A stretch of 64,000 nt of DNA from an uncultured virus (IMG/VR IMGVR_UViG_3300035686_000079) (Duplodnaviria > Heunggongvirae > Uroviricota > Caudoviricetes), in IMG/VR virus record IMGVR_UViG_3300035686_000079; one strand, given 5' to 3'. Positions 7,890-54,974 of the stretch are shown here, in pieces. A program made the position numbers and the translations under genes. Under the pieces are notes generated by a model that saw only the letters and a list, made by a program, of their open reading frames with translations, was not told the DNA's origin and searched no databases. Every line of letters begins with the position of its first letter. Within the stretch, counting starts at the first letter, position 1.

Positions 7890-9140
7890 ATGCTAACAGC
7901 CAACGCGCTCAACCTCCAAGATATTAATCTTTCTGAGAAGACAACAGAACAAAACCACTATATCAGCCTTCAAGAGGATTTGCTTCTGGCGTCTTGGGTA
8001 TCGGACTTGCGCTGTAAAAAGACAAACTGGGGGCTAGCTAGGGGGAAATTTTACTACGAAGCGTTTGAAATCTTGGGAGACGATCGCATCTCTCAAACAT
8101 TTGGAAGTTTTCGGCAGCTAGCGATCCATCTCCACGAGCAACACAAAATCGCCTCGCCCAGTAGAGCTTATGAACTTAGACGTGCTTACACTGTATATTT
8201 GCGGATATTAGAGTTAGGTATTGAAATCCCGGCAAGGTCGCCGTTCAGTACTGAGGTTTTGCTAGAACTGGAGAAAGTTAAGGACGAACACTTCCAAGAG
8301 GCTGCCCAGTGGTGCAAAGATACCTGGGAGCAAACGGGAGAACTCAGGGCGATCGACTTCCTTAAGGAACTCCAGGAGGAATATCCGGCGATCGACTGGC
8401 TACGACGCAAGCCTAAGGAGCAGGTAGGTACGGGTACAACCAAAAAGCCAAAGAAGGATTTAGTAGAGCTAGAGCAAGCAGTACAAAATCAACGAGAGCA
8501 AATAGAGGAGCAAAAAGCGCGTATCAACGCCCTGTCCTCCAATCACCAGCAGTTAGAAGAGCAGTTGCTGGTTACAGCGAAAGAGCGAGACGAGTTCAAG
8601 CGCAAGGCTCAAGAGTTAGAGGAAAAGGTGCGAGAGCTGGAGGGATTGCTACAGCTACAGATCCCGGAGCCGCAAATCAGTACTCCAGAAGACGAACCAG
8701 AACTTCCCGTTGATTCTTGTGTGGAAGTTGAGAGTGAGACAATGGGGATTATCGCAAATCCAAGTTTCCCTAGTTTGCCGATATTTCAGTCTTCCCTCTT
8801 GCAAGCTTTAGATCAAAAGCGTCGGGAAGGAACGCAAGCGATCGTTGAATGCGAGTTCGGTGATTGGTCTGTCTACGATCAAGATGGAGAAATGCTGGGA
8901 GGCACAGAAGAAGGGGACGAGGCAGGACTGGAGCGGGTTATTAATGCGATCGTTCCACGGGTCATTTCAAACCTGCTCACGCCTGAGATGACATGTACCG
9001 CAAATCCTGAGACTGGATGCTACACATTGCAGGTTCCAGGAGAGGAAGAGGAAGTTTATCTCAGTGCTGCTTCTGTTGCGGCTCAAATCTTGCGTTTTAC
9101 ATCAAACCTGAATATCGGAGCCGGTAAGTTTCGTCGTTGA
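7890..9140 (+). CDS. Helical DNA-binding-like protein with a central coiled coil
   Basis: FGSFRQLA...SRAYEL N-terminal pattern; heptad-rich E/Q/K segment. Confidence 0.65.
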   Translation: MLTANALNLQDINLSEKTTEQNHYISLQEDLLLASWVSDLRCKKTNWGLARGKFYYEAFEILGDDRISQTFGSFRQLAIHLHEQHKIASPSRAYELRRAYTVYLRILELGIEIPARSPFSTEVLLELEKVKDEHFQEAAQWCKDTWEQTGELRAIDFLKELQEEYPAIDWLRRKPKEQVGTGTTKKPKKDLVELEQAVQNQREQIEEQKARINALSSNHQQLEEQLLVTAKERDEFKRKAQELEEKVRELEGLLQLQIPEPQISTPEDEPELPVDSCVEVESETMGIIANPSFPSLPIFQSSLLQALDQKRREGTQAIVECEFGDWSVYDQDGEMLGGTEEGDEAGLERVINAIVPRVISNLLTPEMTCTANPETGCYTLQVPGEEEEVYLSAASVAAQILRFTSNLNIGAGKFRR

Positions 9141-9163
9141 ACACCGTTCGATCGAACGGTGTT
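9140..9163. repeat. 24-bp palindrome, copy 1 (perfect; extends to 30 bp, 9137-9166)
   Basis: AACACCGTTCGATCGAACGGTGTT. Confidence 0.97.
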
Positions 9164-9213
9164 CAAACAAAAATCCCCCGATCGAATTGGATTCGATCAG
9201 GGGACGTGGTTGA

Positions 9214-10938
9214 TTACTCAACCCAATCAGAGAATTTAGGAAGCACTACTTCCTTCGGATTGCTTGGTGCGACTGGCTCGTGTGATTCTTCATCATCAAA
9301 CCAATCTGAAAATTTAGGCAGGATAACTTCCTGTTTTACTGGGGTTGGATCTGGAGTATGTTCTGGCAAGGGTACGGCTGGACAGAATTTGATATCCATC
9401 CACTCGCTCCGTGATTTTTCCTTCTTAGTTTTGGGTTTGTGCCAAACCCAAAATTGAGTTGTGTACTCCTGCGTAACTGTTAAAACCCCTTCAATATACT
9501 CAAAGGGGATTTCCACAGCTTTTTTATAGTCAGCGCTGCGTTGGTACTGGTATGTACCTTCCTTCCAGCGCAATTCGGCATCTTGAACGACGACTAATCG
9601 GTCTTCTTGCCATTCATACGGAAGTTGAACTGCCGTATGGTAATGATGCTCGACCTTGACCGTTTGATCGCTGTCGGGCACTTGCTCTTGAGTGATGTAG
9701 TAGCGATCTGCTACGACAACAAGAGCGCCGTCTTGTTCCTCTATAGGGAACGTTTCCTCAACGTGTAGACCCATTAAACCGTAATAGCCTTCGCCATCAG
9801 GTTTAATGGTTACTAGATTTTTCCTGCCTCGCCCTAGGGTAAGGCTGATTTCTTTCGACGAAATACATTGAAGGATATCTTCTAGTAGCCTGTAGTCGAG
9901 ATAGGAGGCATCGGGGTCATCTTCCACTTGCGCAGGTAATGACTCCGTGCCATTGCACCCTTCTACGACTATCACCTGCTTTTTAGAGCAACCGGATAGC
10001 CAAGTGTTGGAAGCGGACTTATCCTCCTTAGTGGCCGGAGAACAGCAACGCTTAAATGCATTGAGCAGGGCTTTGCGATCACATTTGATTGCTCCCGCAT
10101 TGCTGGGCTTTGCGATGTTCTCAAAAGTTGGATACTCTCCAGGAATGAGGCGCGATCGGATGACCATCGTGCCTGCCGTTACCAGCACCATCTCCTCATA
10201 GGCTTGAAATGTTACTGTTTGGCTTTCAGCTTTAGACAGGAACTGAATCAATCCTCGGTTGATAGTGAATTTGCAATCGTCTCCAGTAGCTGGAAGGATA
10301 CGATCGCACATTACAACGCCGTTAGTCGATCGAATGTGGGCAAGCCCGTTTTCGACTTCAATGTGTACTCCAGTGATGACCTGTTTGGTCTCATCATGGC
10401 AGGCAAGCTTTGCTGCCCCTTTGAGGATTTCGATCAAAGGCTGAAATTCAAACTCCACCGATTTACTCTCGCCCTGAATTTCCAGTGTTTCTGGGAATTC
10501 GTCGGGGTCGAGGCTCCTGAATTGGTAGTGGAGGTCGTTGAAGGACGATCGGACGTGCAATACGCGAATGTATTCATCCACCTGCTCTTCAAGATTGAAG
10601 TTTAGTGGAATGCGATCGGGGCACTGCTCTAACCAGCGAGCAAAAAGCTCTGCCGATACGAGGGCGCAGAATTGTTGCTCTGTGAGCATTTGCGCCACAA
10701 TAAAGTTATTAAGGTCTGTCGCCGTCGCCGTAAGTATGCCGTCTTTCGCCTGCAATTTAATGCAAGCCAACACGCTATGTGTTGGTTTCTTGGGGACAGC
10801 TGGTAGCACCGCTTTGACCAGGGCTAGCAGCTCCCCTGCCGGAATTGCAGAGTAAGCGTCATCGACAAGCCGGAGGTTTCCTCCAGCTTGAGTGTATTCT
10901 TCGCTATGCATATACTTTGTGGTTACATTGCTATACAT
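9214..10938 (-). CDS. dnaN: DNA polymerase III beta sliding clamp with about 200-aa C-terminal extension (likely start 10911)
   Basis: AVPKKPTHSVLACIKL, LTATATDL, LDPDEFP, DETKQVITGVH, SRLIPGEYP are DnaN hallmarks. Confidence 0.88.
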   Translation of the reverse strand: MYSNVTTKYMHSEEYTQAGGNLRLVDDAYSAIPAGELLALVKAVLPAVPKKPTHSVLACIKLQAKDGILTATATDLNNFIVAQMLTEQQFCALVSAELFARWLEQCPDRIPLNFNLEEQVDEYIRVLHVRSSFNDLHYQFRSLDPDEFPETLEIQGESKSVEFEFQPLIEILKGAAKLACHDETKQVITGVHIEVENGLAHIRSTNGVVMCDRILPATGDDCKFTINRGLIQFLSKAESQTVTFQAYEEMVLVTAGTMVIRSRLIPGEYPTFENIAKPSNAGAIKCDRKALLNAFKRCCSPATKEDKSASNTWLSGCSKKQVIVVEGCNGTESLPAQVEDDPDASYLDYRLLEDILQCISSKEISLTLGRGRKNLVTIKPDGEGYYGLMGLHVEETFPIEEQDGALVVVADRYYITQEQVPDSDQTVKVEHHYHTAVQLPYEWQEDRLVVVQDAELRWKEGTYQYQRSADYKKAVEIPFEYIEGVLTVTQEYTTQFWVWHKPKTKKEKSRSEWMDIKFCPAVPLPEHTPDPTPVKQEVILPKFSDWFDDEESHEPVAPSNPKEVVLPKFSDWVE

Positions 10939-11008
10939 CTATTTTAGCGTTTGCTATAGAGTTTTGTAGTTTGATAGAATGGTAAAGTAGCAATGTAATC
11001 ACACAACA

Positions 11009-12334
11009 ATGAAACCATCTGATATTACAGCCGTTGACTTTTTCTGCGGCTGCGGCGGCTCCACAACGGGAGCTGTAGAGGCAGGCGTTCGTGTAACCCA
11101 CGCGGTTAACCACGAGCAGATTGCGATCGCCTCGCACAACACAAACTACCCGGACACAGACCACGATTGTGTGGATGTGACCCAAATCCCAGCTAATCGA
11201 TATCCAGAAGCAACTCTAGGGTTGTTCTCTCCGGAATGTGGAGGACATGGAACGGCAGCGGGGAAGAAGCGAGTAGTTGGGCAGTTAAGTTTGTTCGAGC
11301 AAGAACAAGCCGACATTGGACGGGAGCGATCGCGAATGACGATGATGGAGGTTTGCCGCTTTACAGAAGCGCTGAACTTCCAATACGTTATCGTCGAGAA
11401 TGTGCCGGAAGTCACTCGCTGGTATCTGTTCGATCAGTGGCTGTACGAGCTAACTAAACTGGGGTACAAACACAAGATTGTGAGTTTCAACTCGCAATTC
11501 GCTTATCCGATCCCTCAAAGTCGAGATCGGGTGTATATCCACTTTTGGCGCAAGGGCAACCGTGCCCCAAATTTGGAGTACAAGCCCACGGGGTTTTGTG
11601 CAACTTGCAATAAATCCGTCTCGACCTACCAGCACTGGAAAAACCAGAGAATTACTGTTGGGCGTTATCGCCAGCAGTACGTCTATCGGTGTGATCGCTG
11701 CTTTAATGTTGTTGAGCCAGATGTAGCTTCGGCTGCATCTATCGTTAACTGGGACTTAGTTTGTCCCAAGATAGGTGATCGTATCCAGCCGCTAAGGACG
11801 GCAACATTAAAACGTATAGAAATAGGGCTGCAAAAATACGGCATCCCTTTTCTAGCTGAGTTGTATGGCACTGGTACAGCCAGATCGTTAGAAAAGCCAA
11901 TTGGAACTATTACGACCAGTGGCGCTCATCACGCCTTGGTTGCTCACCCCTCCTTCTTGGTGCAGTATAACGGTAAAAGCCATGCTTCCAGCCTTAGCGA
12001 GCCACTGCCAACGATCACGACAGTTGATCGCTGTGGTCTAGTCGATGCTCATTTCCTGCTTCAGTACTACGGCAGAGAGTCGGCGGCTAGCTCTACTACT
12101 AAACCCTTGCCCACTATCACAACGGAAAACCGTCACGCCCTAATTCAGTGCGCCCATGAGGTGCTTGAATGCGGTTTTCGGATGCTCCAACCAGCAGAAC
12201 TCAAGTTGGGCATGGGCTTCCAAGAAAGCTACGTAGTACTGGGAAATAAAAAGCAGCAAGTCAAGCAAGTTGGTAATGCCGTTACCCCTGGTGCGTTGAA
12301 GTGGCAAATTGAACGTGCCATAGAAAGTCTCTAA
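11009..12334 (+). CDS. Phage-type DNA (cytosine-5) methyltransferase
   Basis: Motifs DFFCGCGG (I), SPEC (IV), ENV (VI), QSRDR (VIII), RML...EL...GF and QVGNAV; repeated PLPTITT units. Confidence 0.93.
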   Translation: MKPSDITAVDFFCGCGGSTTGAVEAGVRVTHAVNHEQIAIASHNTNYPDTDHDCVDVTQIPANRYPEATLGLFSPECGGHGTAAGKKRVVGQLSLFEQEQADIGRERSRMTMMEVCRFTEALNFQYVIVENVPEVTRWYLFDQWLYELTKLGYKHKIVSFNSQFAYPIPQSRDRVYIHFWRKGNRAPNLEYKPTGFCATCNKSVSTYQHWKNQRITVGRYRQQYVYRCDRCFNVVEPDVASAASIVNWDLVCPKIGDRIQPLRTATLKRIEIGLQKYGIPFLAELYGTGTARSLEKPIGTITTSGAHHALVAHPSFLVQYNGKSHASSLSEPLPTITTVDRCGLVDAHFLLQYYGRESAASSTTKPLPTITTENRHALIQCAHEVLECGFRMLQPAELKLGMGFQESYVVLGNKKQQVKQVGNAVTPGALKWQIERAIESL

Positions 12335-12337
12335 TCA

Positions 12338-12361
12338 AACACCGTTCGACCGAACGGTGTT
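12338..12361. repeat. 24-bp palindrome, copy 2
   Basis: AACACCGTTCGACCGAACGGTGTT. Confidence 0.95.
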
Positions 12362-12441
12362 CTTAAGCTCACTCATACTTGAGTGGGCTTTTCTGTTGTA
12401 ACATTGCTACAATAGAATTGTGTACCACAAGCAGTGCAACT

Positions 12442-12744
12442 ATGAGCAAGACAAAAAAGGCTCTTGAGCCGAAGTTAATCAATCGACACTCTTTTCCCAT
12501 CAACGAGAAAGACCCCAGCGATCCATTTTCTGGGATCACATCGGAATGGTATGTAGGGTACGACATTGCATACGATCGCCTCCACAGTTTTCCTGTGGAA
12601 CAGCGAGGTGTTTTGACGGTGCATCAACCACTGATTATCAGCACGCCAGTTGGTATACTTTCCAACTGCAATAACGATTACTACATCAAGTACCATCGCC
12701 AAGATGGGCTATGGAGAGTCGATCTCAGACTTCCAGTTGCTTAA
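12442..12744 (+). CDS. Hypothetical protein (start reassigned to ATG 12442)
   Basis: ATG directly follows the AAGCAGTGCAAC leader motif; terminator hairpin after the stop. Confidence 0.6.
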   Translation: MSKTKKALEPKLINRHSFPINEKDPSDPFSGITSEWYVGYDIAYDRLHSFPVEQRGVLTVHQPLIISTPVGILSNCNNDYYIKYHRQDGLWRVDLRLPVA

Positions 12745-12813
12745 GGCAACAAAAAATGCCTCAGCGTGTATCTGAGGCAGCACGAACGAAACTTGTAACA
12801 TTATCTATCAACA

Positions 12814-13185
12814 ATGAACAACAAACCAAAAGCCTTGTTTCTAGGCTCTGATGGCAACATCTATCCAGACCATCAGATATGTTCGGGCATGATTCCTGCC
12901 GAGCTTAATGGCAAACCTTGCATTTATGCCCAAGAGGGTTGTATCCCAGAACCTCAGCCACTCAATGCTGAGGACGAATACTATAGTGTTGACAAAGGGA
13001 AGCCAGGAGATCTGTGCCCTCCCTGCGCCAAGCACAACCTATCGAATTTAGGGCACTGGCAAGGACATGGGAAGCAAACCTTCCCAGAAGAATTGCTACC
13101 ACTACGGCTGTTTAAATGCCGAATGTGGTTCTGGCTGGTGATACCCGGCTTATACGAAGACGATCCTACTCAGATCAAAGAGTAA
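12814..13185 (+). CDS. Hypothetical Cys-containing protein
   Basis: 123-aa ORF with a CPPC motif. Confidence 0.7.
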   Translation: MNNKPKALFLGSDGNIYPDHQICSGMIPAELNGKPCIYAQEGCIPEPQPLNAEDEYYSVDKGKPGDLCPPCAKHNLSNLGHWQGHGKQTFPEELLPLRLFKCRMWFWLVIPGLYEDDPTQIKE

Positions 13186-13201
13186 CGATCGTTGAATAGA
13201 T

Positions 13202-13765
13202 TTGCCTCGGATTATTCCGGGGCAACTTAGTTTAACCCTACTGGAATTTAAAAAGATGGAAACACTTTTAGCGTACAAATTGCAGTTAGAGAAGCTTGCA
13301 GAGGGCGAGCCAGTGGAAACTGGTTTTTACTTTGACGAGCCTTACGAGCCAAATGTAGATGGCGACTACTGCGAGCTATGTGCAAACTGGATTGTAGAGC
13401 TAATGCGATGCAAGCTAATCATGGACTGCCTCGCTTTCTTGCCCTATCCAGTGCTAGCCCAGCGTTACTATCAATTTTATTGGCAATGGTGGGAGTTCTC
13501 CTGGTGGGGAGAAAGCGAAATTCACCCTCACGTAAGTTGGACAGAAAGAGACAATATGATTTGCTGCGATCGATGCAGTGTAATGTTGTCTTACTCCCTC
13601 ACTGAGTATGGGATTGCTTCGGAGATTGAACATTTCGAGTCTCTAGAAAACATCTCGATCGATTCACGAGAAGCGTATCAACTATGGCAAATCTTTGATT
13701 CAGCACTTGACCTTGAAGTTTTTGTCGATGAGTTGATATTCCTAGGTAAAAAATATCTAGGTTAA
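13202..13765 (+). CDS. Hypothetical protein with two CxxC motifs (possible start 13256)
   Basis: CELC and CDRC. Confidence 0.65.
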   Translation: MPRIIPGQLSLTLLEFKKMETLLAYKLQLEKLAEGEPVETGFYFDEPYEPNVDGDYCELCANWIVELMRCKLIMDCLAFLPYPVLAQRYYQFYWQWWEFSWWGESEIHPHVSWTERDNMICCDRCSVMLSYSLTEYGIASEIEHFESLENISIDSREAYQLWQIFDSALDLEVFVDELIFLGKKYLG

Positions 13766-13878
13766 TTACCTGTTGCTGAACCACAGCAACAGCAAGTCAA
13801 GCCCATTCAGATATGAATGGGCTTTTCTGTTGCAACAATGCTAGAATGATAGAGTAACACTACAAGCAATGCAACCAG

Positions 13879-14577
13879 ATGAATATTTTCAAAGTCGATT
13901 ATAACTTCGGCGGACTGCCATCTACTGAAGTCATCATCAACAACGAAGTTGAGGTGTCTTCTTACGTTTCTGAGTTCCGTCTCATCGGAATTGAATGGCA
14001 TGGAGAAGGAGCGGTGCCTCACTGGCACCTGACACTAATCGTGCGATCGACTGGTCGCACAGACAAGGTTGAATGGTCGTTCCTGAAAAGGCGCGACCTC
14101 AATGGTTCAGGAACTCGCCGCAACAAGCGGCTAGCTAATGGAGATCGTTATAGCTATAAACAGCGGTTTCTTTCCATTTCATTCTGGAAGTGGTTCATCA
14201 GCTGGCATCCTTCCTCTCTTACGGGAAAATCGCCTATTGAAGCGATCGCTCCTTTTAGTGCAGTGTTCAAACCCATATACATTCCCTTTGTGGCTCCCAA
14301 GCCACATAAGGAGCGGAAGCGGTTGCAGAAATTTGCAAATAAGGAAGCCTTGGTTTCCGCGAAAGTGGAAGCCCTAGTCCACCAGTCTCTAGAAGAAGGG
14401 ACTGACAAGCCAATACTAGACCTCTACTCGTTCCACAAGGAGCAGGTGAAGCCAGTCTATTGCCCGAAGGTTTATGACGGGGGATTCTTTATCCCCGGTT
14501 TTGGATATTCGTGCGAACGAGTGGGAGTGGAGGTGACGCCGACGAGCGTTACATTTCACCCTGAGTTAATGGGGTAA
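13879..14577 (+). CDS. Hypothetical protein
   Basis: 232-aa ORF preceded by the AGCAATGCAAC motif and followed by a terminator. Confidence 0.7.
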   Translation: MNIFKVDYNFGGLPSTEVIINNEVEVSSYVSEFRLIGIEWHGEGAVPHWHLTLIVRSTGRTDKVEWSFLKRRDLNGSGTRRNKRLANGDRYSYKQRFLSISFWKWFISWHPSSLTGKSPIEAIAPFSAVFKPIYIPFVAPKPHKERKRLQKFANKEALVSAKVEALVHQSLEEGTDKPILDLYSFHKEQVKPVYCPKVYDGGFFIPGFGYSCERVGVEVTPTSVTFHPELMG

Positions 14578-14657
14578 TCTAAACGATCGCCCTAAAAAGG
14601 GAAAACCCTGCTTTTGAGCGGGGTTTTCTTTATGCAGACACTCTAACTAACCACATT

Positions 14658-15419
14658 ATGGCACTAACAGTTCTCACATATAAACAGTCCGGTATGAAAG
14701 CCGTCTACCATGAGGACAATCAAATTACCAAAACAATCAACGTGTTATCGCTGACTGTTTTGCAAGACAATGCAGAAGTCTATCAAGGTAAAGCTGATTT
14801 TTATGTCAGCACCTTGGTAGAGAACGGATGGGAAATTTGGGATATCAATTTATCGATATTCTCCGAAAAAGAAATCCGAGCTATGCGGACAACTGCATGG
14901 CATTTGCACAAACGCACAGAGGCGGATCGTCGCCTTGCATCATTGCAGGCTCCCATCATGGCTAAAGCCTTGGGACGATCGCTCAAAGACAACCATTATG
15001 CGCATTTCTATTGCGCTGAATGGGGTACGGACGCAATCACATGTGGTTGCGATTTAGTTTGGAAAACTGGGGGACAAAAAATCATCCAGTTTTGCCTAGC
15101 TATTACCAGCTTTGAAGACTTAGAACTTCGGGACTATACCGAGGAGCTGATGTGGCGACAATATATTAAAGGTCGTCGCGATAAAGGTCTTCCTTTTTCT
15201 ACTGAAGGGCGATGGAACCCCTATCGGAACGGGGAGCAACTAAGTGATTTAGAACGCCAAGCTATTCTTGACGCTCAAGAAGCCAAGCGAGGTAGGTTTG
15301 CCGCCTGTGGCGTGTCAGACCTCAATGCACTTTTTGATTCACTTTCTAACACATCTGTGAAGGACACAAAACCATTCACAGTAGATGACTTACCGAAGTT
15401 CTCAGATTTCGTTGAGTAA
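14658..15419 (+). CDS. Hypothetical protein ending LPKFSDFVE
   Basis: 253-aa ORF. Confidence 0.75.
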   Translation: MALTVLTYKQSGMKAVYHEDNQITKTINVLSLTVLQDNAEVYQGKADFYVSTLVENGWEIWDINLSIFSEKEIRAMRTTAWHLHKRTEADRRLASLQAPIMAKALGRSLKDNHYAHFYCAEWGTDAITCGCDLVWKTGGQKIIQFCLAITSFEDLELRDYTEELMWRQYIKGRRDKGLPFSTEGRWNPYRNGEQLSDLERQAILDAQEAKRGRFAACGVSDLNALFDSLSNTSVKDTKPFTVDDLPKFSDFVE

Positions 15420-15504
15420 GCAAAACCCCGATCGCACCTAACCACAAAGCCTCAGTCCCTGCAAGGGATTGGGGCTTTTCTTTGCGTTAGAATAGAGTAA
15501 GGCA

Positions 15505-16410
15505 ATGCAACCAACAACAAATATGGAACATACTGAAAACGCCGAGCCATCGGTGATGTTTGACGTAGCTAATTTCACGGACGATCGCATTATCTACGAA
15601 ATTCTCGAAGCCGTAGGCTTGGTGACTGAATTTGGCAAGGAAAAAGCAATTGCAGATTACGGGTCGCAAGTTGACCTTGTAGTAGCCAGAGAGTGGATGA
15701 TCAAATCCAATGAAGCAGAGGAAAAACTAGCTCAATACAAAGTAGTGAGAAATCAACTCTATTACTTGAGGAAACGACTAAACCCAATGGAAGATCGGTA
15801 CCTAGATAGTTTGTCTACACCAAGGCATCTATTGAAATATAAGGAACGCCTACACTTACTGGACAACCATCCAGAAATATCAGTCTTGCGTCGGGAGAAA
15901 GCCGAATTGCAAGCTGAATGCGATCACAGATCTAAAGCCTACGATCGGGCTTCTAATGAAGCATTCGCGATCAGCAAAAAGCTATTCAAGCCCCAACCCA
16001 AAAAGCCAAGGCAACCTAAACCTGAAAAGGATTACGCTGCTTTGGTTGAATACTGGGAAAGGAAACTAAGCGGTGCTACCTACCGCTTGAACAGAGCGAT
16101 AGGTGCATTAGAGACTGCTCAGAAGAACTACGATCGTATCTGTGGCAACGGTAGTGAAATTCTTCAACATTTCCACATGGGAATGGTTGGAGGCAGTGGC
16201 AAGAATGTCAAAGCGCTCAACAGAAAAAAGGAGCGCCAACTCGATAGCACCATTGAAGCTGCCAGAAAACTGAGAGCGGCTCAAGAACGAGTAAACAGCT
16301 TGCAATCAACTGTTGACCTATACCAGAAAAACTTGGATAAAGCTGCATCCAAGGTAAAGGTTACTAGTACACAAGTAACACTACCCAGTTTTGCAGACTG
16401 GGTAGAGTAG
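15505..16410 (+). CDS. Coiled-coil protein ending LPSFADWVE
   Basis: 301-aa helical ORF; terminator follows. Confidence 0.75.
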   Translation: MQPTTNMEHTENAEPSVMFDVANFTDDRIIYEILEAVGLVTEFGKEKAIADYGSQVDLVVAREWMIKSNEAEEKLAQYKVVRNQLYYLRKRLNPMEDRYLDSLSTPRHLLKYKERLHLLDNHPEISVLRREKAELQAECDHRSKAYDRASNEAFAISKKLFKPQPKKPRQPKPEKDYAALVEYWERKLSGATYRLNRAIGALETAQKNYDRICGNGSEILQHFHMGMVGGSGKNVKALNRKKERQLDSTIEAARKLRAAQERVNSLQSTVDLYQKNLDKAASKVKVTSTQVTLPSFADWVE

Positions 16411-16537
16411 AAACCCCGAAGACCCCCTGCTCCTCGAAAAGGCTTAGGGGGTCTTTGTTTTGGGTGTTTTAGCTTAATGTCTTAGTACAACATTTTGAAT
16501 TATGTTATCATAGATATGTAGCAATGTAATCACAACA

Positions 16538-16897
16538 ATGTTGAATAATTACGATAAATACGGGCATCTCCGCATTGGGGATGTCTGTCGGTTCGAGCAA
16601 AGCCTTGCGCCCAGGTCATCTTCCCTGATGATTCCGGAACTCTATGAGCCTCGGAATTGGATGGTGATAGCCTTTGGCATTGGCAAGGATGTCGATGAGG
16701 TGTACGTCCGCCGTTTCCACGACGGACTGGTCGTTAAGATACCGACCTACATAGCGATCGCCAACCGCCTTAAGCACCCCAAACAGGGACAAGGTGGTTT
16801 TTGGGCAAAAATCAAAGCGGTGCAACGGATTAACCAAACCCTATATCTGGATATAGCGGCAACACTTGCCGACGCCAAAAGAAAGCGACTGATTTAA
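16538..16897 (+). CDS. Hypothetical protein
   Basis: Leader TAGCAATGTAATCACAACAATG nearly identical to that of the C5 methylase. Confidence 0.7.
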   Translation: MLNNYDKYGHLRIGDVCRFEQSLAPRSSSLMIPELYEPRNWMVIAFGIGKDVDEVYVRRFHDGLVVKIPTYIAIANRLKHPKQGQGGFWAKIKAVQRINQTLYLDIAATLADAKRKRLI

Positions 16898-18423: not shown

Positions 18424-19014
18424 ATGACTGAGCTGAAACATCTGTTATCTCAAATCATTGGGAAAACAACGGCAAACAAGCTAATTAAGACTCTCCAAGA
18501 AATTGGAGACCCAGCTTACTTATTGCAAATCTCCTCCTATGAGGAGCTTTGTCATTACGTAGGTGAAAAGGCGGCGGCTAAAGTTATTGCTGCCCTAGCA
18601 TTGGGGCAGGTCGTCCGCATCCCAACTCATAAATGGACGGTCTCTTCCCCAAGAGCTGTATACCACGCCTTAAACTGCAATGCCCGTCCCAGACAGGAAT
18701 GCCTACAGGCGATATATGTAAATGCCCACCTAGAAGTGCTGGGCATAAAGACAATTAACATTGGCACGGCAGTAGAGTCTCTCGTAGACTCAAATGAATT
18801 TTTTCGTTGGGCGATCGTATTCAATGCGGCAGCGGCGATCGTTGCTCACAATCACCCAGGCGGGAGCCTTACTCCCAGTCCCGAAGATCTTGCGATCACC
18901 AAGCAACTGATCGCCGCTGGAAAAACAATCAATGTCGAGCTTCTCGATAGCTTGATATTGACGCTCTATACTTACCGATCACTCAAGCAAGACTACCCAC
19001 AACTGTGGGAGTAA
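18424..19014 (+). CDS. radC: RadC-like JAB/MPN domain protein
   Basis: KAAAKVIAALALG, QECL, JAMM motif HNHPGGSLTPSPED, LLDSLI. Confidence 0.9.
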   Translation: MTELKHLLSQIIGKTTANKLIKTLQEIGDPAYLLQISSYEELCHYVGEKAAAKVIAALALGQVVRIPTHKWTVSSPRAVYHALNCNARPRQECLQAIYVNAHLEVLGIKTINIGTAVESLVDSNEFFRWAIVFNAAAAIVAHNHPGGSLTPSPEDLAITKQLIAAGKTINVELLDSLILTLYTYRSLKQDYPQLWE

Positions 19015-19036
19015 CACCGTTCGGTCGAACGGTGTT
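19013..19036. repeat. 24-bp palindrome, copy 3
   Basis: AACACCGTTCGGTCGAACGGTGTT, overlapping the radC TAA. Confidence 0.95.
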
Positions 19037-25819: not shown

Positions 25820-25843
25820 AACACCGTTCGACCGAACGGTGTT
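25820..25843. repeat. 24-bp palindrome, copy 4
   Basis: AACACCGTTCGACCGAACGGTGTT, overlapping the methylase stop codon. Confidence 0.95.
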
Positions 25844-27761: not shown

Positions 27762-27785
27762 AACACCGTTCGATCAAACGGTGTT
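27762..27785. repeat. 24-bp palindrome, copy 5
   Basis: AACACCGTTCGATCAAACGGTGTT. Confidence 0.93.
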
Positions 27786-30609: not shown

Positions 30610-30633
30610 AACACCGTTCGATCGAACGGTGTT
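30610..30633. repeat. 24-bp palindrome, copy 6 (perfect)
   Basis: AACACCGTTCGATCGAACGGTGTT. Confidence 0.97.
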
Positions 30634-35534: not shown

Positions 35535-35536
35535 TA

Positions 35537-41480: not shown

Positions 41481-41931
41481 CGCAGAAAGTATCATTACTT
41501 ACGAAGAACTGTTCGCTTGGCGTAACGTTTGCGAACTGCTTCATCGTTTGGGTGCGATCGATCGTGGCAGATGGACGGAGTTCGGGCTTAGCGAATGGGA
41601 CTGCGCTGTCTTCATCAAAGACGCCAGGTTGGTTCTTAGCTTTGATGTCCGTCCGCGTCGCCAACTTCTTTGGGATACTTGGCGAATTCAGTTGGTTCGG
41701 TGGATTAGCTCTAGCCAAGTAGCCAAGAAAAATACTGGCTGGGTTCTCAAGTCTCGATGGGAACACAAGATCGACTTCCTCGAACATGTTGTTCTGTTTA
41801 ATGCCAGCCCGTACAGCTTGCCAATGCCTTGGCTGCGAAGCGACATGCCGAAACCTTGGGATGCGGTTATTAGCAAAGACCTTATGCCACGACCAGGGGA
41901 CATGGTTTTAAGTAGGAAGCCGCAAGCTTAA
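41467..41931 (+). CDS. Hypothetical Trp-rich protein
   Basis: 154-aa operonic ORF. Confidence 0.6.
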   Translation: MMQGSAESIITYEELFAWRNVCELLHRLGAIDRGRWTEFGLSEWDCAVFIKDARLVLSFDVRPRRQLLWDTWRIQLVRWISSSQVAKKNTGWVLKSRWEHKIDFLEHVVLFNASPYSLPMPWLRSDMPKPWDAVISKDLMPRPGDMVLSRKPQA

Positions 41932-41953
41932 CACCGTTCGATCGAACGGTGTT
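41930..41953. repeat. 24-bp palindrome, copy 7 (perfect)
   Basis: AACACCGTTCGATCGAACGGTGTT overlapping a TAA. Confidence 0.97.
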
Positions 41954-47224: not shown

Positions 47225-47280
47225 GTCTTATAATTTCAACACACAAAAGCCACCCCCTTGGGTGGCTTAGCTGTTTTAAG

Positions 47281-47304
47281 AACACCGTTCAATCGAACGG
47301 TGTA
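47281..47304. repeat. 24-bp palindrome, copy 8 (two mismatches)
   Basis: AACACCGTTCAATCGAACGGTGTA. Confidence 0.9.
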
Positions 47305-47339
47305 AAATCGCAGTAATTATTTTGTGCAAAATTCAACCC

Positions 47340-48020
47340 ATGCTCTTAACCCTCGAAGAGATTCGCAAGGCGGAGGCGATCGAACGTCTTGAGCAAAAGC
47401 AACGGGATTCTCTGCCTCAATCAAAATTGGTTATTGTCAAGCAAAATACTCCGCCCCCTCCCGCTCCTTCGGTTAAGCGAGAAGCAAGGAAGCAAGGGAG
47501 AAGAGAACAGAGGAAGAGAGTGGGGAGAGTAGAGAGTGGGGAGCAGGGTGTAATGGGACTGGGGAATTTAAACCCCTGCCTCCTGTCCTCTGCCCCACAG
47601 CCTCTCCCTACTTCCACAACAGCTGGAATTGAAAAAAACTGCGAGATTTGCTTGCGGTCTTACCACATTCCACCCAGTTACAGAGATCGGCGGCGTACCT
47701 GCGGAGACAGTAAGTGTGTCGCTAAGATACGGAATTTAGAAAAAATATCGAAAACCTGCGAGATTTGCGGGAATGATTTTAAAGTAGTAGCCAGCAATGT
47801 CAATCGACGACGCACATGCGGAAAACGGGAATGCAACCGCCAGATCCGCTCGATCGCCCGTCGCAGGCACAAGCTATGGGATGAACCGAAAAAGTGCGAA
47901 CATCCCGACTGCCCAAATATGTTAGAAGCAAATCGGAAGAAATCTAAGCAGGAAAAGTATTGCTCGAAAAGATGTGCGTCACGCGATCGGCATAAACTGG
48001 GACTTAATCCAACAAGGTGA
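47340..48020 (+). CDS. Protein with three Cys4 zinc-binding repeats
   Basis: CEIC...RRRTCG..KC twice, then CEHPDC...YCSKRC. Confidence 0.65.
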   Translation: MLLTLEEIRKAEAIERLEQKQRDSLPQSKLVIVKQNTPPPPAPSVKREARKQGRREQRKRVGRVESGEQGVMGLGNLNPCLLSSAPQPLPTSTTAGIEKNCEICLRSYHIPPSYRDRRRTCGDSKCVAKIRNLEKISKTCEICGNDFKVVASNVNRRRTCGKRECNRQIRSIARRRHKLWDEPKKCEHPDCPNMLEANRKKSKQEKYCSKRCASRDRHKLGLNPTR

Positions 48021-48259
48021 AGGCGAACATGGAAAGTATACGTATTTCAGCTCGATGCCATTCCTGTCTAATTCAAGAATCTTGGACTGAGAAGTGCAAG
48101 CCTCGTCATAACTGGCGGCTAATCTCCACGCCAGTCGATTTATCGAGCTTAAGTCACTACGGGCCATATTGTTTTTGTAGTGAGCGTTGCGAATTTGGGT
48201 ACATGGAAAACAAGGCTGTTCTGGAGGCAGAACTTAGGCGGCAGGCAGGACAACATTGA
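48017..48259 (+). CDS. Small Cys-rich protein
   Basis: CHSC...FCSERC. Confidence 0.55.
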   Translation: MKANMESIRISARCHSCLIQESWTEKCKPRHNWRLISTPVDLSSLSHYGPYCFCSERCEFGYMENKAVLEAELRRQAGQH

Positions 48260-49292
48260 CCCGAATCCAGCTACCTGATTCCGACTCGATCAATAGCCGC
48301 CCTTTGTACTGTTCGCAGATGTTCTGCACGATCGCCAGTCCCAAGCCCAGCCCATCTTTGTCCCAGAACTTCATGTAGGGTCCGATGCGAGCAATTTGCT
48401 CAGCCGTCAGTCCTACTCCTTCGTTGTAGACAGAAATTCGGTGATATCCGGGTGCTTCGTGCCGATCGTCAATTACAACAGGCGAACCCGGAGCGGAGAA
48501 CTTAAATGCGTTGTCCACAATGCAAGCAAGAATCTTGGACAGAGCTGAACTGGGCAACGCAATGGGTATAGGAATCAAATTGCACTGAACATCTTGCGAT
48601 CGTTGATATTGAATCCCAAAATCTGAAGCTATTTTTGTTCCTACTATAAATAAATCTGAAGAAGAATTCTCTAAAGGCTTAATCCCCAGTTCTTTGGAGG
48701 TTTCAGACGCATAATAACTCATCCAATTTTCAGTCAGCCTATTTTGTCGCAAGGCTGACTTCTGGATATCATCAACTAATTCCTTGGCCTCATCAGGCAG
48801 ATCCATCTCCTTCAGCAGGGAAATATTGGCAAGTATGCCATTCAACGGAGTTCTGAGTTCATGAGGAAGAACCTCATGAATTACAGACTGCATATGAGTA
48901 AGCTTGAAGTCAAACTCCTTATCTCGCCTACCCTTCTTTTCTAGTTGAGTAGCAATACTCTTAAGTAACTCCGAACGGGTAAAGGGTTTTGTAAGGTAAT
49001 CTTCTGCTCCTGATTCCATCCCTAGCCGCGTATCGGCAGGAGCCGCTTTAGCCGTCAGGAAAATGAATGGAGTGTCAATCGATCGCTCTCGAAGTCGAGC
49101 CAGTACCTCCATTCCATCCATGTGAGGCATCATGATGTCGCACAGGATTAAATCTGGAGAACAGGATAGAGCGAGGTCAACTCCCTCAATCCCGTTGGTT
49201 GCTTCGATAACATCAAACTCGTCGATAGCGAGAATATCAGCAATGTTCTCGCGTACCTCTGGATTGTCCTCGATGACTAATATTGTTGGCAT
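48234..49292 (-). CDS. Hybrid response regulator-histidine kinase (REC-HisKA-HATPase)
   Basis: ILVIEDN, ILCDIMMP, FLTAK, YLTKPF; HELRTPL; VDNAFKF; GLGLGLAI. Confidence 0.93.
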   Translation of the reverse strand: MPTILVIEDNPEVRENIADILAIDEFDVIEATNGIEGVDLALSCSPDLILCDIMMPHMDGMEVLARLRERSIDTPFIFLTAKAAPADTRLGMESGAEDYLTKPFTRSELLKSIATQLEKKGRRDKEFDFKLTHMQSVIHEVLPHELRTPLNGILANISLLKEMDLPDEAKELVDDIQKSALRQNRLTENWMSYYASETSKELGIKPLENSSSDLFIVGTKIASDFGIQYQRSQDVQCNLIPIPIALPSSALSKILACIVDNAFKFSAPGSPVVIDDRHEAPGYHRISVYNEGVGLTAEQIARIGPYMKFWDKDGLGLGLAIVQNICEQYKGRLLIESESGSWIRVNVVLPAA

Positions 49293-49396: not shown

Positions 49397-49900
49397 TCAA
49401 GCTACATGCAATTCTTTATGTGGGACTACTAGTTTTACAGGTTCTGACAGAACAAATGAATGCCCCTCTCGAACACACCGCATCTCCCAGAATTCCCCTT
49501 TGCGCTTCTTGCAAGGGAGTTGTCCTTTGATGTTTATCTTGAATGAATCTTTTTGAATGGAGCGTCTAATTTGCATAACCAATATTTTGTTTTTGTCATT
49601 CCAGAAATTTAGCTCTCCTCTAATACAAAACCAGTCTATTAATCTAGGACTTGGATCGGGCATGATGGCGATCGCATAAAACGATAGTGATTCGGCATGA
49701 CATCTGGGATAAACATGAAAAACCTGCTCCTGTTTTAGTATTTCAGGATGTTTCCTTAACCATGCCCTCATGGAGGGGCTTAATGAGAGGGCAAACTCCC
49801 CATCGTCAGCTTTGATGACATTTTTTGAAGGGATATACAGCCCTTTTATGAATCCGTTGGCTTGATATTTGGACTCATTCGATGATGTAAATCTATCCAT
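49397..49900 (-). CDS. Hypothetical protein resembling a conserved cyanobacterial family (start uncertain)
   Basis: YQANGFIKGLY, VYPR, FCIRGE, FW motifs; the 5' part of the track ORF is antisense to the 49869 ORF. Confidence 0.6.
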   Translation of the reverse strand: MDRFTSSNESKYQANGFIKGLYIPSKNVIKADDGEFALSLSPSMRAWLRKHPEILKQEQVFHVYPRCHAESLSFYAIAIMPDPSPRLIDWFCIRGELNFWNDKNKILVMQIRRSIQKDSFKINIKGQLPCKKRKGEFWEMRCVREGHSFVLSEPVKLVVPHKELHVA

Positions 49901-52244
49901 GGTTGACATTACTAACTCCCAAATTACAGTTGTTAACTCTCCAGAATTATCCTCTCTCCTGACTTCGGCACCAGTGGCACCCACTGAACAAACGGGAACG
50001 TTAAAGGATGCCAAGACGACGACTGATGACAAGTCTAAGACTGGCAACAAAACTGACAGCAAAAAAGAGGACAAGGACGATAAAGGCGCTGACAAGCGCT
50101 CTAGACATTATATCCGGATAAAGTTTGGAGGTGATCCAACTGGGACATTGCCCACCACGGCGAGCAGTGAGCCGGACAAAAGTACTTTTGAATACATGGC
50201 TCAAGCCTTGAAAATGTTAGGTGGAGACGCCACATTGATTTCTGCCACTGAGCTAGCAGCAAAGTGGGAGCAGGAGCGGAACGCTACTAACAACGAACTG
50301 GCAGCACGCCTTCAGGCGTTAGGTGGAGACGCTACATTAATCTCTGCTGCCCAAACCGTTAATAAAATCAACACAACACCCAAAACTCAAGCAACCGACA
50401 AGCCTTCATCGCCGAATCCCGCCGCACCTAACCAACCCATAGCTAAAGACAAAAATATCGTCATTCCAGATTATTTAAAACCAGAAAATTTTAAGCCGCC
50501 TTCTACCACACCAGCGACAAATACCGCAACACCGACATTACGCAAGTTTGATACCAATGATGCCTCGACGGGTACGAAGGTAGCAGAAAACATCAAGAGT
50601 GGGCAGCTAGGTGTTGGAAAATTTGATATTAAAACGGAAGATCTTGTCAAGGCTGGAGAGCAAGCCAAGGTAAAGAAGCAAGAAGCCGAGGGGACAAGAG
50701 AGATCGAGTTTAACAGTCTTAATGGCGATTTATTGGGTCGCACGGAGGTGATTTCATCAAGTACTCAGCACAACTCAGCGAAGTTCACAATTTATGACCC
50801 TAAAGATGAATTCAGGGCAATCATACCCAAACTGAAAAACGTTCAAGTAACCATAGGGTTTGTCGATGGTTATTCAAAGAACGTCTTTGTTGGGATTGTC
50901 TTGGAGGTAGGACGCAAACCGCCCCACGGAACTTTTGTTTGGGCGATCGATCCAAGCTATGAACTCAAGGCTCCGGCGTCGGGAACCAACGTTACATCCC
51001 CTCCCAATACGTCTTCGGCTCAGTCTGATGCCAAGACAATGGCAGAACTAGCCGGTACGCTTACTTTATTAGGCGGGGACAAGCGACTTATTAATTTAGC
51101 AGAAACCTTAAATAAAGACTTACAAAGCCAAGAACAAGTAAAATCCATTGCTCAAGATATTTCGGCAATTGACAGTAACTCTGAGCTGGCTAAAATAGCT
51201 GGCTCTTTAGTCAAAAAGCCAACTACTCCTCAAACGCCTACTACGCCTCAGGCTCCTGCCACCACGCCCCAAACGCCTACTACGCCTCAGGCTCCTGCCA
51301 CCACGCCCCAACAAGCCTCTGCCACTCAAAATCCAGCCCCTTCAACTAACGGCGATTTGTTAGCCGAAATCAAAAAGGCAGATAATTCAATGTCGCCTTC
51401 ATTGGCACAGCAATTTGTTGGACTCGCTCCTAACAAAGACCTGAAATTCAAAGACCAAACCAATGGCATCACCATCCAGAAGATGGGCGAGGTTCAACTC
51501 CAACAAAGCCAGCTAGCGGCAGCGCAAACTCAAGCTGCACTGAAAGGAGACATTGTTGTTGTTCGAGGCAACACACTGGTAGAGGCATCTCCAGGCAAAG
51601 GAGAAAGCACGGGTGTAATTTTAGACTTCAAAGGCAACCCCTCTACTTTCATTGGTGCTCCAGTAATCAAAAAACGATCGCCTGTTTCCCTGCAAGGGCC
51701 AGCCGGAGGGGTAATGGTTCAGGGCTGGAATCCTCAAACCAAGCAGTTAACCAGAGGCATTGCCTACACGCAGGGTGGACCGACTCAGCATCCTACGGGT
51801 GTTATCAATCCACCGGAATGGAAGGCTGTAAAACTTTCCGATCCTATCATTCCCGGTTCGCCTTATACCTGGGGAGATGCAACGAAGGAAGGAGCGCGAG
51901 TTCCGGAGACAAAACAAATTATGGGGGGGATTATCAGAATTGCTACAATTATTACCGAATTCACTAAAAAGACGGGTCAACAAAAGTGGGTAATCACGTC
52001 TTGGTATCGCGATCCAGTTAGCAATAGAAATGCAGATGGAGCAACTAATTCTCGACACCTGTACGGGGATGCTGTTGACTTCTATTTCGATGGTCCAGAG
52101 TATACCAAATTCTTCAAAGAATTGTGGGCTGATGGTGAAGGGGGAAAGCAGGGTTGGGCTGGAGGAATAGCTCAGGGCAGTGGTTTCACGCACATAGATG
52201 ACAGAGCATCCCAAGGAGAGGCTAGATCGAGATGGTATTATTGA
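49869..52244 (+). CDS. Tail/baseplate-hub-like protein with C-terminal peptidase M15A (cell-wall hydrolase) domain
   Basis: ITSWYR...N...GATNSRHLYGDAVDF...FTHID; P/T-rich linkers; AKFTIYDP...VTIGF...VFVGIV hub-like segment. Confidence 0.78.
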   Translation: MDSFDDVNLSMVDITNSQITVVNSPELSSLLTSAPVAPTEQTGTLKDAKTTTDDKSKTGNKTDSKKEDKDDKGADKRSRHYIRIKFGGDPTGTLPTTASSEPDKSTFEYMAQALKMLGGDATLISATELAAKWEQERNATNNELAARLQALGGDATLISAAQTVNKINTTPKTQATDKPSSPNPAAPNQPIAKDKNIVIPDYLKPENFKPPSTTPATNTATPTLRKFDTNDASTGTKVAENIKSGQLGVGKFDIKTEDLVKAGEQAKVKKQEAEGTREIEFNSLNGDLLGRTEVISSSTQHNSAKFTIYDPKDEFRAIIPKLKNVQVTIGFVDGYSKNVFVGIVLEVGRKPPHGTFVWAIDPSYELKAPASGTNVTSPPNTSSAQSDAKTMAELAGTLTLLGGDKRLINLAETLNKDLQSQEQVKSIAQDISAIDSNSELAKIAGSLVKKPTTPQTPTTPQAPATTPQTPTTPQAPATTPQQASATQNPAPSTNGDLLAEIKKADNSMSPSLAQQFVGLAPNKDLKFKDQTNGITIQKMGEVQLQQSQLAAAQTQAALKGDIVVVRGNTLVEASPGKGESTGVILDFKGNPSTFIGAPVIKKRSPVSLQGPAGGVMVQGWNPQTKQLTRGIAYTQGGPTQHPTGVINPPEWKAVKLSDPIIPGSPYTWGDATKEGARVPETKQIMGGIIRIATIITEFTKKTGQQKWVITSWYRDPVSNRNADGATNSRHLYGDAVDFYFDGPEYTKFFKELWADGEGGKQGWAGGIAQGSGFTHIDDRASQGEARSRWYY
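51231..51308 (+). repeat. 39-bp in-frame tandem duplication (QTPTTPQAPATTP x2)
   Basis: Identical units at 51231-51269 and 51270-51308. Confidence 0.93.
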
Positions 52245-53371: not shown

Positions 53372-54034
53372 TCAATCGACATCACCGTGCCAGGAATTTG
53401 CAGCTCTCCAGTTCCTCAAACGAAAGGCTTCCTCCTGAAAATATCGACCTTGATTGGCTTGATGTTCCAAAAGCGCAATTTCGATAGACCATTCATCCAG
53501 TTGTTTTTCCTTCTCGCCCAAGGCTTCCCGTAGGTGAGAAACTTCATTCTGTAGTTCAACCTTTCCTTCCACAAACAACTTTTCTATAACCTCATACACC
53601 CAAACTTCTAAGTCTGGGTTTAACCAAGTAGCGAGACGTAAAGCAACTCGCCTATGCCCCCATGTCCCCTGCAACTCAGGAACACCACCCTGGTAGACTT
53701 CAACTAATGGTTTAAATACTGAACTATTCTCAATAAGCTCCGTTACGCTTTTTGGCGCAACGGGCGAAGGCGGCACAAAATAGAAGATAAAGTCCGTTGC
53801 GCTATTCTCAATAAAAGACTTGTTTAACCTATACGCCAATGCCTTCATATAACTCTCGGTTGAATCAATACGCAAAAAATTGTTGATTCGCTTGTTATAG
53901 ATTTTGCACATTGCAGTTAAGTTCCAATACTCGTCTTCTGGGCGAATCAATACACGATGCCCCTCAAAGTATTGCTCTACTAAAGATAAGCTGCTCATCG
54001 GTTTTATTCCTCTGCTAGTTCTTCTAGTGTGCAA
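53372..54034 (-). CDS. KilA-N domain protein (likely start about 53998)
   Basis: YWNLTAMCK...INNFLR...QGTWGHRRVALRLATWLNP. Confidence 0.88.
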   Translation of the reverse strand: MHTRRTSRGIKPMSSLSLVEQYFEGHRVLIRPEDEYWNLTAMCKIYNKRINNFLRIDSTESYMKALAYRLNKSFIENSATDFIFYFVPPSPVAPKSVTELIENSSVFKPLVEVYQGGVPELQGTWGHRRVALRLATWLNPDLEVWVYEVIEKLFVEGKVELQNEVSHLREALGEKEKQLDEWSIEIALLEHQANQGRYFQEEAFRLRNWRAANSWHGDVD

Positions 54035-54201
54035 TCAAGGACGCGGCATAGCTGGCGCATATCCTTAAAATTTAGTCTGGCTTCTCTTCTGCCTGATTCC
54101 CAATTTTGAACGGTGGTAACCGTTACGCCAAGCGCTTCAGCTACCTGCCTTTGAGTTAACCCAGCTCTGTTTCTTAACTTAATCAAGGTGTCGGACTGCA
54201 A
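54004..54201 (-). CDS. XRE/Cro-family HTH regulator
   Basis: LRNRAGLTQRQVAEALGVTVTTVQNWESG. Confidence 0.9.
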   Translation of the reverse strand: MQSDTLIKLRNRAGLTQRQVAEALGVTVTTVQNWESGRREARLNFKDMRQLCRVLDCTLEELAEE

Positions 54202-54366
54202 TTTGTAATTCGTCTCCTTTAGATTAACACTTGTTAGTTAAAGTGTGTTAGCCTTATAGACACACCAAAGCGATCGCGTCTCAGTATGGCTGCCGTGGCG
54301 CGATCGCATCTTTCATCCTCACAAGGAGGCAAGATCTCATTATGCCAATTTTTGAGCTAAATTCCT

Positions 54367-54858
54367 ATGGCTCAGCGTCTTATTTCTTCGGCATCAACAG
54401 TGATTGTTGCTACGAAGAATGCCCAAACTCAGCGGTGTTCTACGACGCTTGCAATTTCGGCTACTGTCTGGAACACTGGGAGGGCGAAATTAATGTTTAG
54501 CCCTGGAACCAATGTCGATATTTTCTCTCCAGCAGACCAACCTTCAGGTGAGTGGGTTTGGATTGGAGGCTACCAAATCTCCACTAGCAAGAAGCAGCGC
54601 CATACGAGGCTTCCAAAAACTCTAGTGAATCCATTGACGAGAGAGATAGAGAAGTGCCTCGTCGTCCAAAATGGGCCTAGAGCTTTCCCTGTTTGCCAAT
54701 CACATGTTCGACTCGCAGCGAAAGATGCTTGGAAATACCCAAAACTCAATTTGTCTCGAACGATCGCCTTAGCAGGTGTTGTTATTGCGGATGAATCAGA
54801 CAAGGCCGATCTGGAAGCGATAAGTGAGATAGGCGTTAGCTCGGAGGAAGAAGTTTAG
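54367..54858 (+). CDS. Hypothetical protein
   Basis: 163-aa ORF followed by a terminator hairpin. Confidence 0.6.
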   Translation: MAQRLISSASTVIVATKNAQTQRCSTTLAISATVWNTGRAKLMFSPGTNVDIFSPADQPSGEWVWIGGYQISTSKKQRHTRLPKTLVNPLTREIEKCLVVQNGPRAFPVCQSHVRLAAKDAWKYPKLNLSRTIALAGVVIADESDKADLEAISEIGVSSEEEV

Positions 54859-54950
54859 AACAGAAAAAAGACGCAATCTGCCGCTCCTTCGGGGCGGTTT
54901 TTTTTGTTAATGTCAACACGCTATAGTAGGGTGTGCCTTCTCTTCTAATT

Positions 54951-54974
54951 AACACCGTTCGATCGAACGGTGTT
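54951..54974. repeat. 24-bp palindrome, copy 9 (perfect), 11 bp before the tape-measure ATG
   Basis: AACACCGTTCGATCGAACGGTGTT. Confidence 0.97.

Follow-up and report, generated by a model that had tools for sequence, protein, structure and literature searches.

Dispersed 24-bp palindromes in an uncultured tailed-phage provirus: candidate docking sites for an element-encoded protein

Introduction

The IMG/VR record IMGVR_UViG_3300035686_000079 represents an uncultured virus of the Caudoviricetes. It is 157,177 bp long, 96% complete and classed as a provirus. A stretch of 64,000 nucleotides from it (record positions 62,001-126,000, hereafter the window, to which positions refer unless the record is named) carries nine copies of a 24-bp palindrome scattered among its genes. 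What reads these palindromes, and to what end? An initial annotation of the window suggested that they are either binding sites for a dimeric protein encoded by the element, possibly a dispersed centromere, or recombination sites.

It is very probable that the 24-mers are sites at which a protein contacts DNA. That they organise the element is a more tentative proposal, which we hold to be possible rather than probable. The specific reading that we favour, with a probability of roughly 0.35, is that each 24-mer is a duplex docking site for the product of gene 7890-9140, a CTPase-less protein of predicted ParB fold whose bound dimers would bridge or tether the prophage. The probability left over by the readings discussed below goes to the same kind of site with another reader or role. 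Throughout, we take as established that the sites and genes exist and that the site statistics hold; binding, reader and role are what we infer from them.

Sequence and distribution of the sites

All nine copies lie exactly where they had been annotated, whereas dinucleotide shuffles gave 0 matches in 100. Four are perfect, four have one change and one has two; five overlap a stop codon and one precedes the tape-measure start, again as annotated (Table 1). The gaps between them, given as about 2-11 kb, measure 1.9-11.3 kb. Counting the motif over the whole replicon, a check proposed in the initial annotation, yields 23 copies in the 157-kb record, 14 of them outside the window, or about one per 7 kb across the element. 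Seven of the 23 are perfect, 12 have one change, three have two and one (record position 141303) has a 1-bp deletion. Near-misses are scarce: only three further places in the record match with up to 8 mismatches, none of them with 3-4 or 6-7.

The core CACCGTT-N6-AACGGTG is unchanged in 44 of 44 half-sites of the 22 full-length copies, a count that leaves out the copy with the 1-bp deletion. Variation in these 22 is confined to the two outer A's and the inner CGA. Their centres are CGATCG (12 copies), CGACCG (six), CGATCA (three) and CAATCG (one), and the 1-bp-deleted copy also has CGACCG. Since the HIP1 core CGATCG is missing from 11 of the 23 copies, methylation is unlikely to act as a general switch, and the earlier suggestion of methylation-sensitive binding does not hold as a general feature of the sites. 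Host methylation followed by deamination could have produced the four C-to-T centres.

A stop codon is overlapped by 10 of the 23 copies (0.5 expected) and lies no more than 10 bp away from 13 of them. With the automatic ORF set, 12 copies fall between tandem genes, six between convergent and two between divergent ones, while three are called inside ORFs. Only one of these three is clearly intragenic. It is located outside the window, in-frame within the 22.7-kb tape-measure gene (record position 131143), so that the statement that all copies are at gene boundaries cannot be extended to the record. The 23 copies are spaced more evenly than random (coefficient of variation [CV] 0.61, p 0.010; largest gap 14.2 kb, p 0.005), also when random gene junctions serve as the reference (p 0.009).

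The -10-like hexamers found near copies keep no fixed distance from them, one duplicated promoter cassette excepted. This cassette of ~80 bp (L001:9532-9610 and L001:12496-12574) consists of a leader, a -10-like hexamer and one palindrome copy.

Occurrence outside the element

The motif is nearly absent elsewhere. An exact 22-bp search of GTDB returned a single match, in a G+C-rich non-cyanobacterial contig, and the same search of IMG/VR returned none. Scanning metagenomes (30 of 64 parts) with an 18-bp pattern detected 120 loci, none with two copies; just two weak matches to common protein domains of the element were found at these loci, and they are regarded as chance. In the source run the element's own contigs are the only motif matches, and four records on a 2-kb stretch with two copies have a depth of 28-34, the same as the element. 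A related strain in the second run retains the motif, its flanking gene being ~8% divergent. No paper containing the exact letters of three of the motifs described here was found in the main texts of the open literature, and in topic searches of that literature neither the titles nor the opening lines of abstracts mention them.

A short repeat at 27864-27900, very abundant in both metagenome runs, raises the depth of its bin above 3000. It sits in-frame in gene 27784-28320 and is probably a host cyanobacterial repeat. The element-like depth of the 24-mer (28-34 against >3000 for that bin), together with the single GTDB match, indicates that the 24-mer is probably not a host repeat of the HIP1 or REP-like kind, a question judged here from run depth and databases. 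The invariant core, the near-absence elsewhere and the restriction of source-run matches to the element's contigs thus strengthen one part of the initial proposal, a site for a dimeric element-encoded protein. Its other part, a dispersed ParB centromere, is weakened by the evidence given below.

Hairpins and recombination sites as alternatives

Could the palindromes act as hairpins instead, in RNA or extruded DNA, recognised by sequence in processing, pausing or antitermination? Three copies with their flanks fold at -14.5 to -22 kcal/mol on both strands, the variation is concentrated in the would-be loop, and the flanks lengthen the stem beyond chance. However, the stem sequence never covaries and changes in the outer stem are mostly one-sided. 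No U-tract follows the copies, Rfam gives no match in the window at gathering score, and one copy lies within essential coding sequence. Moreover, when one copy of the A+T-rich dyad of a kin element (G002, see below), which is similarly placed, was folded as RNA, it gave 0 kcal/mol and no structure, so the dispersed layout needs no hairpin. We consider a hairpin signal very improbable. As for intrinsic terminators, the five copies in 8500-28400 are absent from the 48 terminator-like sites detected there. The contrast drawn in the initial annotation between the variable terminators and a palindrome conserved at the sequence level is borne out by the invariant stem and the missing U-tract. Several copies visibly adjoin terminators, though by a strict test of proximity to hairpins they are not enriched there (2 of 23 versus a background of 0.16); we therefore claim no link between the two.

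The arms and 6-bp centre resemble the core sites of tyrosine recombinases, and the ~80-bp promoter-plus-site cassette is not only duplicated but occurs with other flanks in the related strain. These features would suit recombination or resolution sites that shuffle gene cassettes. Yet no integrase, resolvase or telomere resolvase family was matched among the 140 proteins of at least 90 aa encoded by the record, which covers all but ~23 kb of its source contig. Besides being symmetric, the centre is heterogeneous. A genome with 23 active sites would be unstable, and in the two runs there is no joint at a site with long flanks. The recombination proposal of the initial annotation is thus barely credible.

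Relation to the ParABS locus

The element has one ParA-ParB pair (ParA match at record 7173-8003; ParB_N match, the only one in the record, at record 6083-7180). A perfect 30-bp palindrome that differs from the 24-mer is found at the start of parA (L001:7946-7975, record G000, outside the window), and judging from sequence it is likely to be the ParB site of the element. The 24-mers closest to the locus lie 1.1 kb upstream of parA on one side and 2.6 kb downstream of parB on the other.

Plasmid relatives of this ParB have a comparable arrangement. In nine of 18 a strict scan lists a dyad 19-109 bp upstream of parA; three more (L135, L136, L137) have one there by other scans, and the remaining six have none at this place. 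The sequence of the dyad varies along with the recognition residues of ParB. This covariation and the position at parA suggest that the dyads are bound by ParB. Symmetric copies were returned by 9 of 10 whole-plasmid scans, and in all nine they are restricted to the par locus. It must be noted that the W05 dyad was missed by the first pattern and recovered by a later degenerate one, and that background matches to the loose degenerate pattern are near control level, only symmetric matches being counted. With a matrix built from 11 parA-proximal sites, the parA palindrome scores +10.4 (rank 15 of 157,159 positions) and the 24-mer -34.7 (rank 140,747), bearing in mind that the recognition residues of the element's ParB are unusual for the family.

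A CTPase ParB of changed specificity might nevertheless load at the 24-mers, as KorB does on RK2. Indeed, the recognition residues in question are unlike those of all 18 aligned relatives, the 24-mer shares its geometry (arms and a 6-bp centre) with the sites of the ParB family, and a stretch of 10.6 kb around parAB holds four copies (p 0.07). Against such a dispersed centromere, the start of parA is already occupied by a family-typical palindrome, the corresponding dyad of the relatives changes with ParB and stays at the par locus, and the 24-mer is not family-like by the matrix. None of the changes listed in the related strain falls inside the parA palindrome. In addition, G002 encodes ParA with a 130-aa partner and has no ParB_N match in the part covered and no dyad at its parA locus, yet it carries 43 dispersed dyads. 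These observations weaken the dispersed-parS reading, which we regard as improbable.

A by-product of this comparison is a predicted 18-bp parA-proximal site for a family of ParB proteins from cyanobacterial plasmids; across 11 plasmids its sequence changes together with the recognition residues. It could aid the building of stable cyanobacterial vectors.

A candidate reader

Of the two candidates that had been named within the window, the 416-aa protein encoded by 7890-9140 gained a predicted ParB-type DNA-binding fold, and 7070-7762 showed only a weak XRE-type helix-turn-helix (HTH) likeness. The former has no useful Pfam or PHROG match. A feature-level search gives a lead, and a lead only, to DUF3102 and a plasmid partition domain (score 0.90), and a representative search found just two homologues. 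Residues 21-190, modelled from the resulting three-row alignment (pLDDT 78, pTM 0.71), resemble the DNA-binding domains of Spo0J, Noc, KorB, ParB and SopB at Z 8.9 to 5.3. The best of these matches are Spo0J 99-214 (Z 8.9, rmsd 3.2, 116 residues) and Noc bound to NBS (Z 8.5, rmsd 3.0, 114 residues), followed by Spo0J-parS (Z 7.7) and KorB-operator (Z 7.0). In all, five ParB/KorB/Noc family members align over 112-124 residues at Z 7.0-8.9 and rmsd 3.0-3.9, unrelated rows reaching down to ~3.4.

The alignment begins ~25 residues into the protein, at the point that corresponds to the end of the Spo0J CTPase domain, and no CTPase (ParB_N) domain was found in the protein. Its putative recognition helix is kept in both homologues, and a long helix (191-257) is confidently predicted; a single-sequence fold of residues 1-260 was poor (pLDDT 50) and served for the coiled coil call only. 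The gene ends on a palindrome copy, and its homologue in the Nostoc plasmid NZ_CP040278.1 starts ~95 bp after a copy of that plasmid's own dyad, ~2 kb from parB. The protein is the best candidate for a binder of the 24-mer, an assignment that we make tentatively.

In the docking reading, a dimer of this protein would contact both CACCGTT arms and tolerate variation in the 6 bp between them, and through the coiled coil the dimers on the DNA would be able to pair or tether. They would organise the ~160-180 kb of low-copy prophage DNA from end to end, like MatP, Noc or KorB, while ParAB would act from its separate site at parA. The location of the sites at stop codons and gene junctions would be explained if these are the places where bound protein, or a fixed sequence, is least costly.

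Several observations tell against this reading. The best fold match of the model is Raf1, a Rubisco chaperone (Z 9.9), its Foldseek E-values are all >0.4, and helical folds with Z below ~13 may merely share a common helical arrangement. The adjacency of gene and site was spotted after 19 candidates had been tested. The protein could also bind another target. A second dispersed dyad, 17 bp long with an A/T centre, has six copies (22001, 52661 and 53351; record positions 3503, 61688 and 156816), and its half-site matches a dispersed 16-mer of NZ_CP040278.1; the 17-mer is an alternative target because only the element and this plasmid share both half-site and protein. The 16-mer copies of the plasmid are unevenly spaced (p 0.34), and a profile from the three-row alignment has no match in the kin elements G002 and G003 (0 of 5 records; 63% and 88% complete), whose dispersed dyads are the densest. 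Two further kin elements, G001 and G004, are without a clear dispersed dyad, the trait thus not being family-wide; in G005 the dyad is doubtful (35 clustered matches at one mismatch, with 4 in the reversed control) and was not counted. As for the 24-mers, their evenness is non-significant on the 22 strict-core copies alone (p 0.06). Their flanks prolong the palindrome beyond chance (p 0.006), an extension that a protein site does not need and part of which may be due to one duplicated flank and to stop codons on both sides. Finally, the record covers all but ~23 kb of the 179,900-bp source contig.

Possible silencing by a phage repressor

An alternative is that a phage repressor (7070-7762, the Cro/CI-type 54004-54201 or the 416-aa protein itself) occupies all sites and blocks read-through, in the manner of stoperators. 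HTH genes are present on the element. The copies occupy short intergenic gaps and stop codons, the placement that PMC9283540 describes for mycobacteriophage stoperators, and two of them overlap the -35 region of the duplicated promoter cassette, 14 bp from TATAAC. On the other hand, the 24-mers are symmetric, whereas stoperators are asymmetric and oriented. Six copies separate convergent genes, and a block there would have no obvious silencing effect. The divergent gap in front of each of the two XRE-like genes is free of copies. A better operator lead is a separate short dyad, TGTARCAWT, at several promoter-like regions. Stoperator-like silencing is rather improbable, but it comes next after the docking reading.

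TGTARCAWT occurs at 12397, 12794, 16517 and 51947 and at record positions 9551, 12515 and 35372. The regions that hold it look like promoters or leaders of small genes. In one place it forms a full dyad, and it is a possible repressor operator. A Cro/CI-type HTH gene stands beside a KilA-N gene in 53372-54201, divergent from 54367-54858; the arrangement resembles a lysis-lysogeny switch module.

Kin elements

Six elements of the same terminase family were compared. Close relatives at the protein level have terminase identities of 67%, 57% and 53%, and two of them probably encode homologues of the 7890-9140 protein. The 24-mer was found in no kin element (G003 being screened by dyad census only). 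Three of the six carry a dispersed palindrome of their own that differs from it. G002 has 43 copies of a 16-bp A+T-rich dyad and G003 has 59, mostly at gene junctions but also inside genes. In G003 the spacing is even (CV p 0.0002) and six exact-consensus copies lie inside the tape-measure gene. The Nostoc plasmid NZ_CP040278.1 has 14 copies of another 16-mer, nine of them inside ORFs. G002 has, in addition, its own odd-centred dyad family.

It is a rather doubtful generalisation that giant-tail cyanophage-plasmids have a dedicated genome-organising system apart from ParABS. In it a protein of ParB fold, lacking the CTPase domain but equipped with a coiled coil, would clamp prophage DNA at lineage-specific palindromes a few kb apart, even through a 22-kb gene.

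The element and its other genes

Besides the ParA-ParB pair, the element encodes terminase, portal, capsid-like, baseplate and tail proteins, endolysins, several methyltransferases and IS200/IS605. Its 7,556-aa ORF is homologous to the annotated tape-measure protein of NZ_CP040278.1. HIP1 is enriched (61 versus 1.7 expected), the best plasmid matches of ParB are all cyanobacterial, and both metagenome runs with element DNA are listed as biocrust. These features, taken with the phage and ParAB genes, suggest a temperate cyanophage that is maintained as plasmid or provirus. No tRNA was found on the element, and no replication initiator or polymerase was identified among its proteins.

Table 1. 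Positions in the window of the palindrome copies and of the genes discussed
Feature	Position	Strand	Remarks
24-bp palindrome	9140..9163		perfect; overlaps stop of 7890-9140; convergent junction; adjoins minus-strand terminator-like hairpin
24-bp palindrome	12338..12361		centre CGACCG; methyltransferase stop 4 bp before; terminator-like hairpin after
24-bp palindrome	19013..19036		centre CGGTCG; overlaps RadC-like gene stop
24-bp palindrome	25820..25843		centre CGACCG; overlaps N6/N4 methyltransferase gene stop; also on related-strain contig
24-bp palindrome	27762..27785		centre CGATCA; convergent junction; overlaps stop
24-bp palindrome	30610..30633		perfect; hairpin before; 771-aa gene 99 bp after
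24-bp palindrome	41930..41953		perfect; overlaps stop
24-bp palindrome	47281..47304		two changes, centre CAATCG; between tandem genes
24-bp palindrome	54951..54974		perfect; ends 12 bp before tape-measure ATG
Candidate cognate protein	7890..9140	+	416 aa; predicted ParB/Noc/KorB-type DNA-binding domain (~25-170), then coiled coil (~190-257)
Rival candidate binder	7070..7762	-	divergent gene, 230 aa; weak XRE/Cro-type HTH likeness, scores under the tool's bar
Tape-measure-like gene start	54986..64000	+	7,556 aa; continues past window; one in-frame copy at record position 131143

Three sliding-clamp (beta-clamp-like) paralogues are present (9214-10938; record 1779-3365 and 49656-50903), two of them with long extensions. 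Genes of DNA-modification type (24373-25749; record 47059-48732 and 35438-36805) encode TGT-like (with DUF6884), DndB-like and PAPS-reductase-like proteins, and there are at least six methyltransferases beside them. Paralogous proteins after the tape-measure gene (L006:15665-L007:12744 and L007:15088-15906) have one N-terminal motif in common; the family also occurs in kin phages, where some members have nuclease- or kinase-like tails.

Comparison with known systems

Dispersed protein sites are already known on plasmids, chromosomes and mycobacteriophages, and the layout of the 24-mers alone is unsurprising. Should they have an organising role, they would belong to a phage-encoded genome-structuring system distinct from partition. 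If the generalisation to giant-tail cyanophage-plasmids were true, this system would be the viral equivalent of MatP or Noc; its task would be to compact, tether or mark the phage DNA inside a polyploid host, or to prepare that DNA for packaging. The element offers a useful set for such studies: an invariant 24-bp site with a named candidate for its reader, a predicted partition site apart from it, and kin phages with differing sites similarly placed.

Phage-plasmid N15 has a handful of separate palindromic centromere sites read by SopB. The present element is likewise a phage-plasmid with separate palindromic sites instead of one array; unlike N15, it has 23 of them and a family-type ParB site at parA. 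On the chromosome, MatP/matS combines dispersed palindromic sites with a structural role. Noc, for its part, keeps its CTPase domain. Noc/NBS and SlmA/SBS, as outlined in PMC4726725, have tens of palindromic sites over a replicon, with a structural or spatial role, a chromosomal location and a regional bias. The many palindromic sites and the ParB fold, predicted for the 7890-9140 protein, recall Noc. In contrast to Noc, SlmA and MatP, the sites here are on a phage-plasmid, from end to end, and the candidate reader, unlike Noc, is without a CTPase domain.

On RK2/RP4, the dispersed palindromic OB operators are 13 bp long and KorB is the partition ParB itself, according to PMC3597684. Here too palindromic sites extend across a low-copy replicon, and the model of the candidate aligns with the DNA-binding domain of KorB (Z 7.0). 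The differences are a 20-bp core, a ParAB locus with its own differing site and, again, the missing CTPase domain.

Among mycobacteriophages, Cluster A genomes have more than 20 stoperators in short intergenic spaces, 13-bp asymmetric and oriented sites read by a repressor monomer, in the account of PMC9283540. The present sites are similar in exceeding 20 copies genome-wide in a temperate phage (23 here), many by stop codons, and differ in being symmetric 24-mers with several at convergent gene ends. The SAS/ESAS repeats of Cluster K are described in PMC3203893 as genome-wide repeats of unknown function, inverted repeats included, that are tied to translation starts and have a variable spacer. 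They share with the 24-mers their conservation across a phage genome and the inverted repeats; the 24-mers differ in their preference for gene ends and in the fixed length of 6 bp of their centre.

In sequence and in position relative to the par operon the 24-mer does not behave as this element's parS, nor in its symmetry as a stoperator. By analogy, its layout appears closest to KorB/OB, Noc/NBS or MatP/matS, and its placement resembles that of stoperators.

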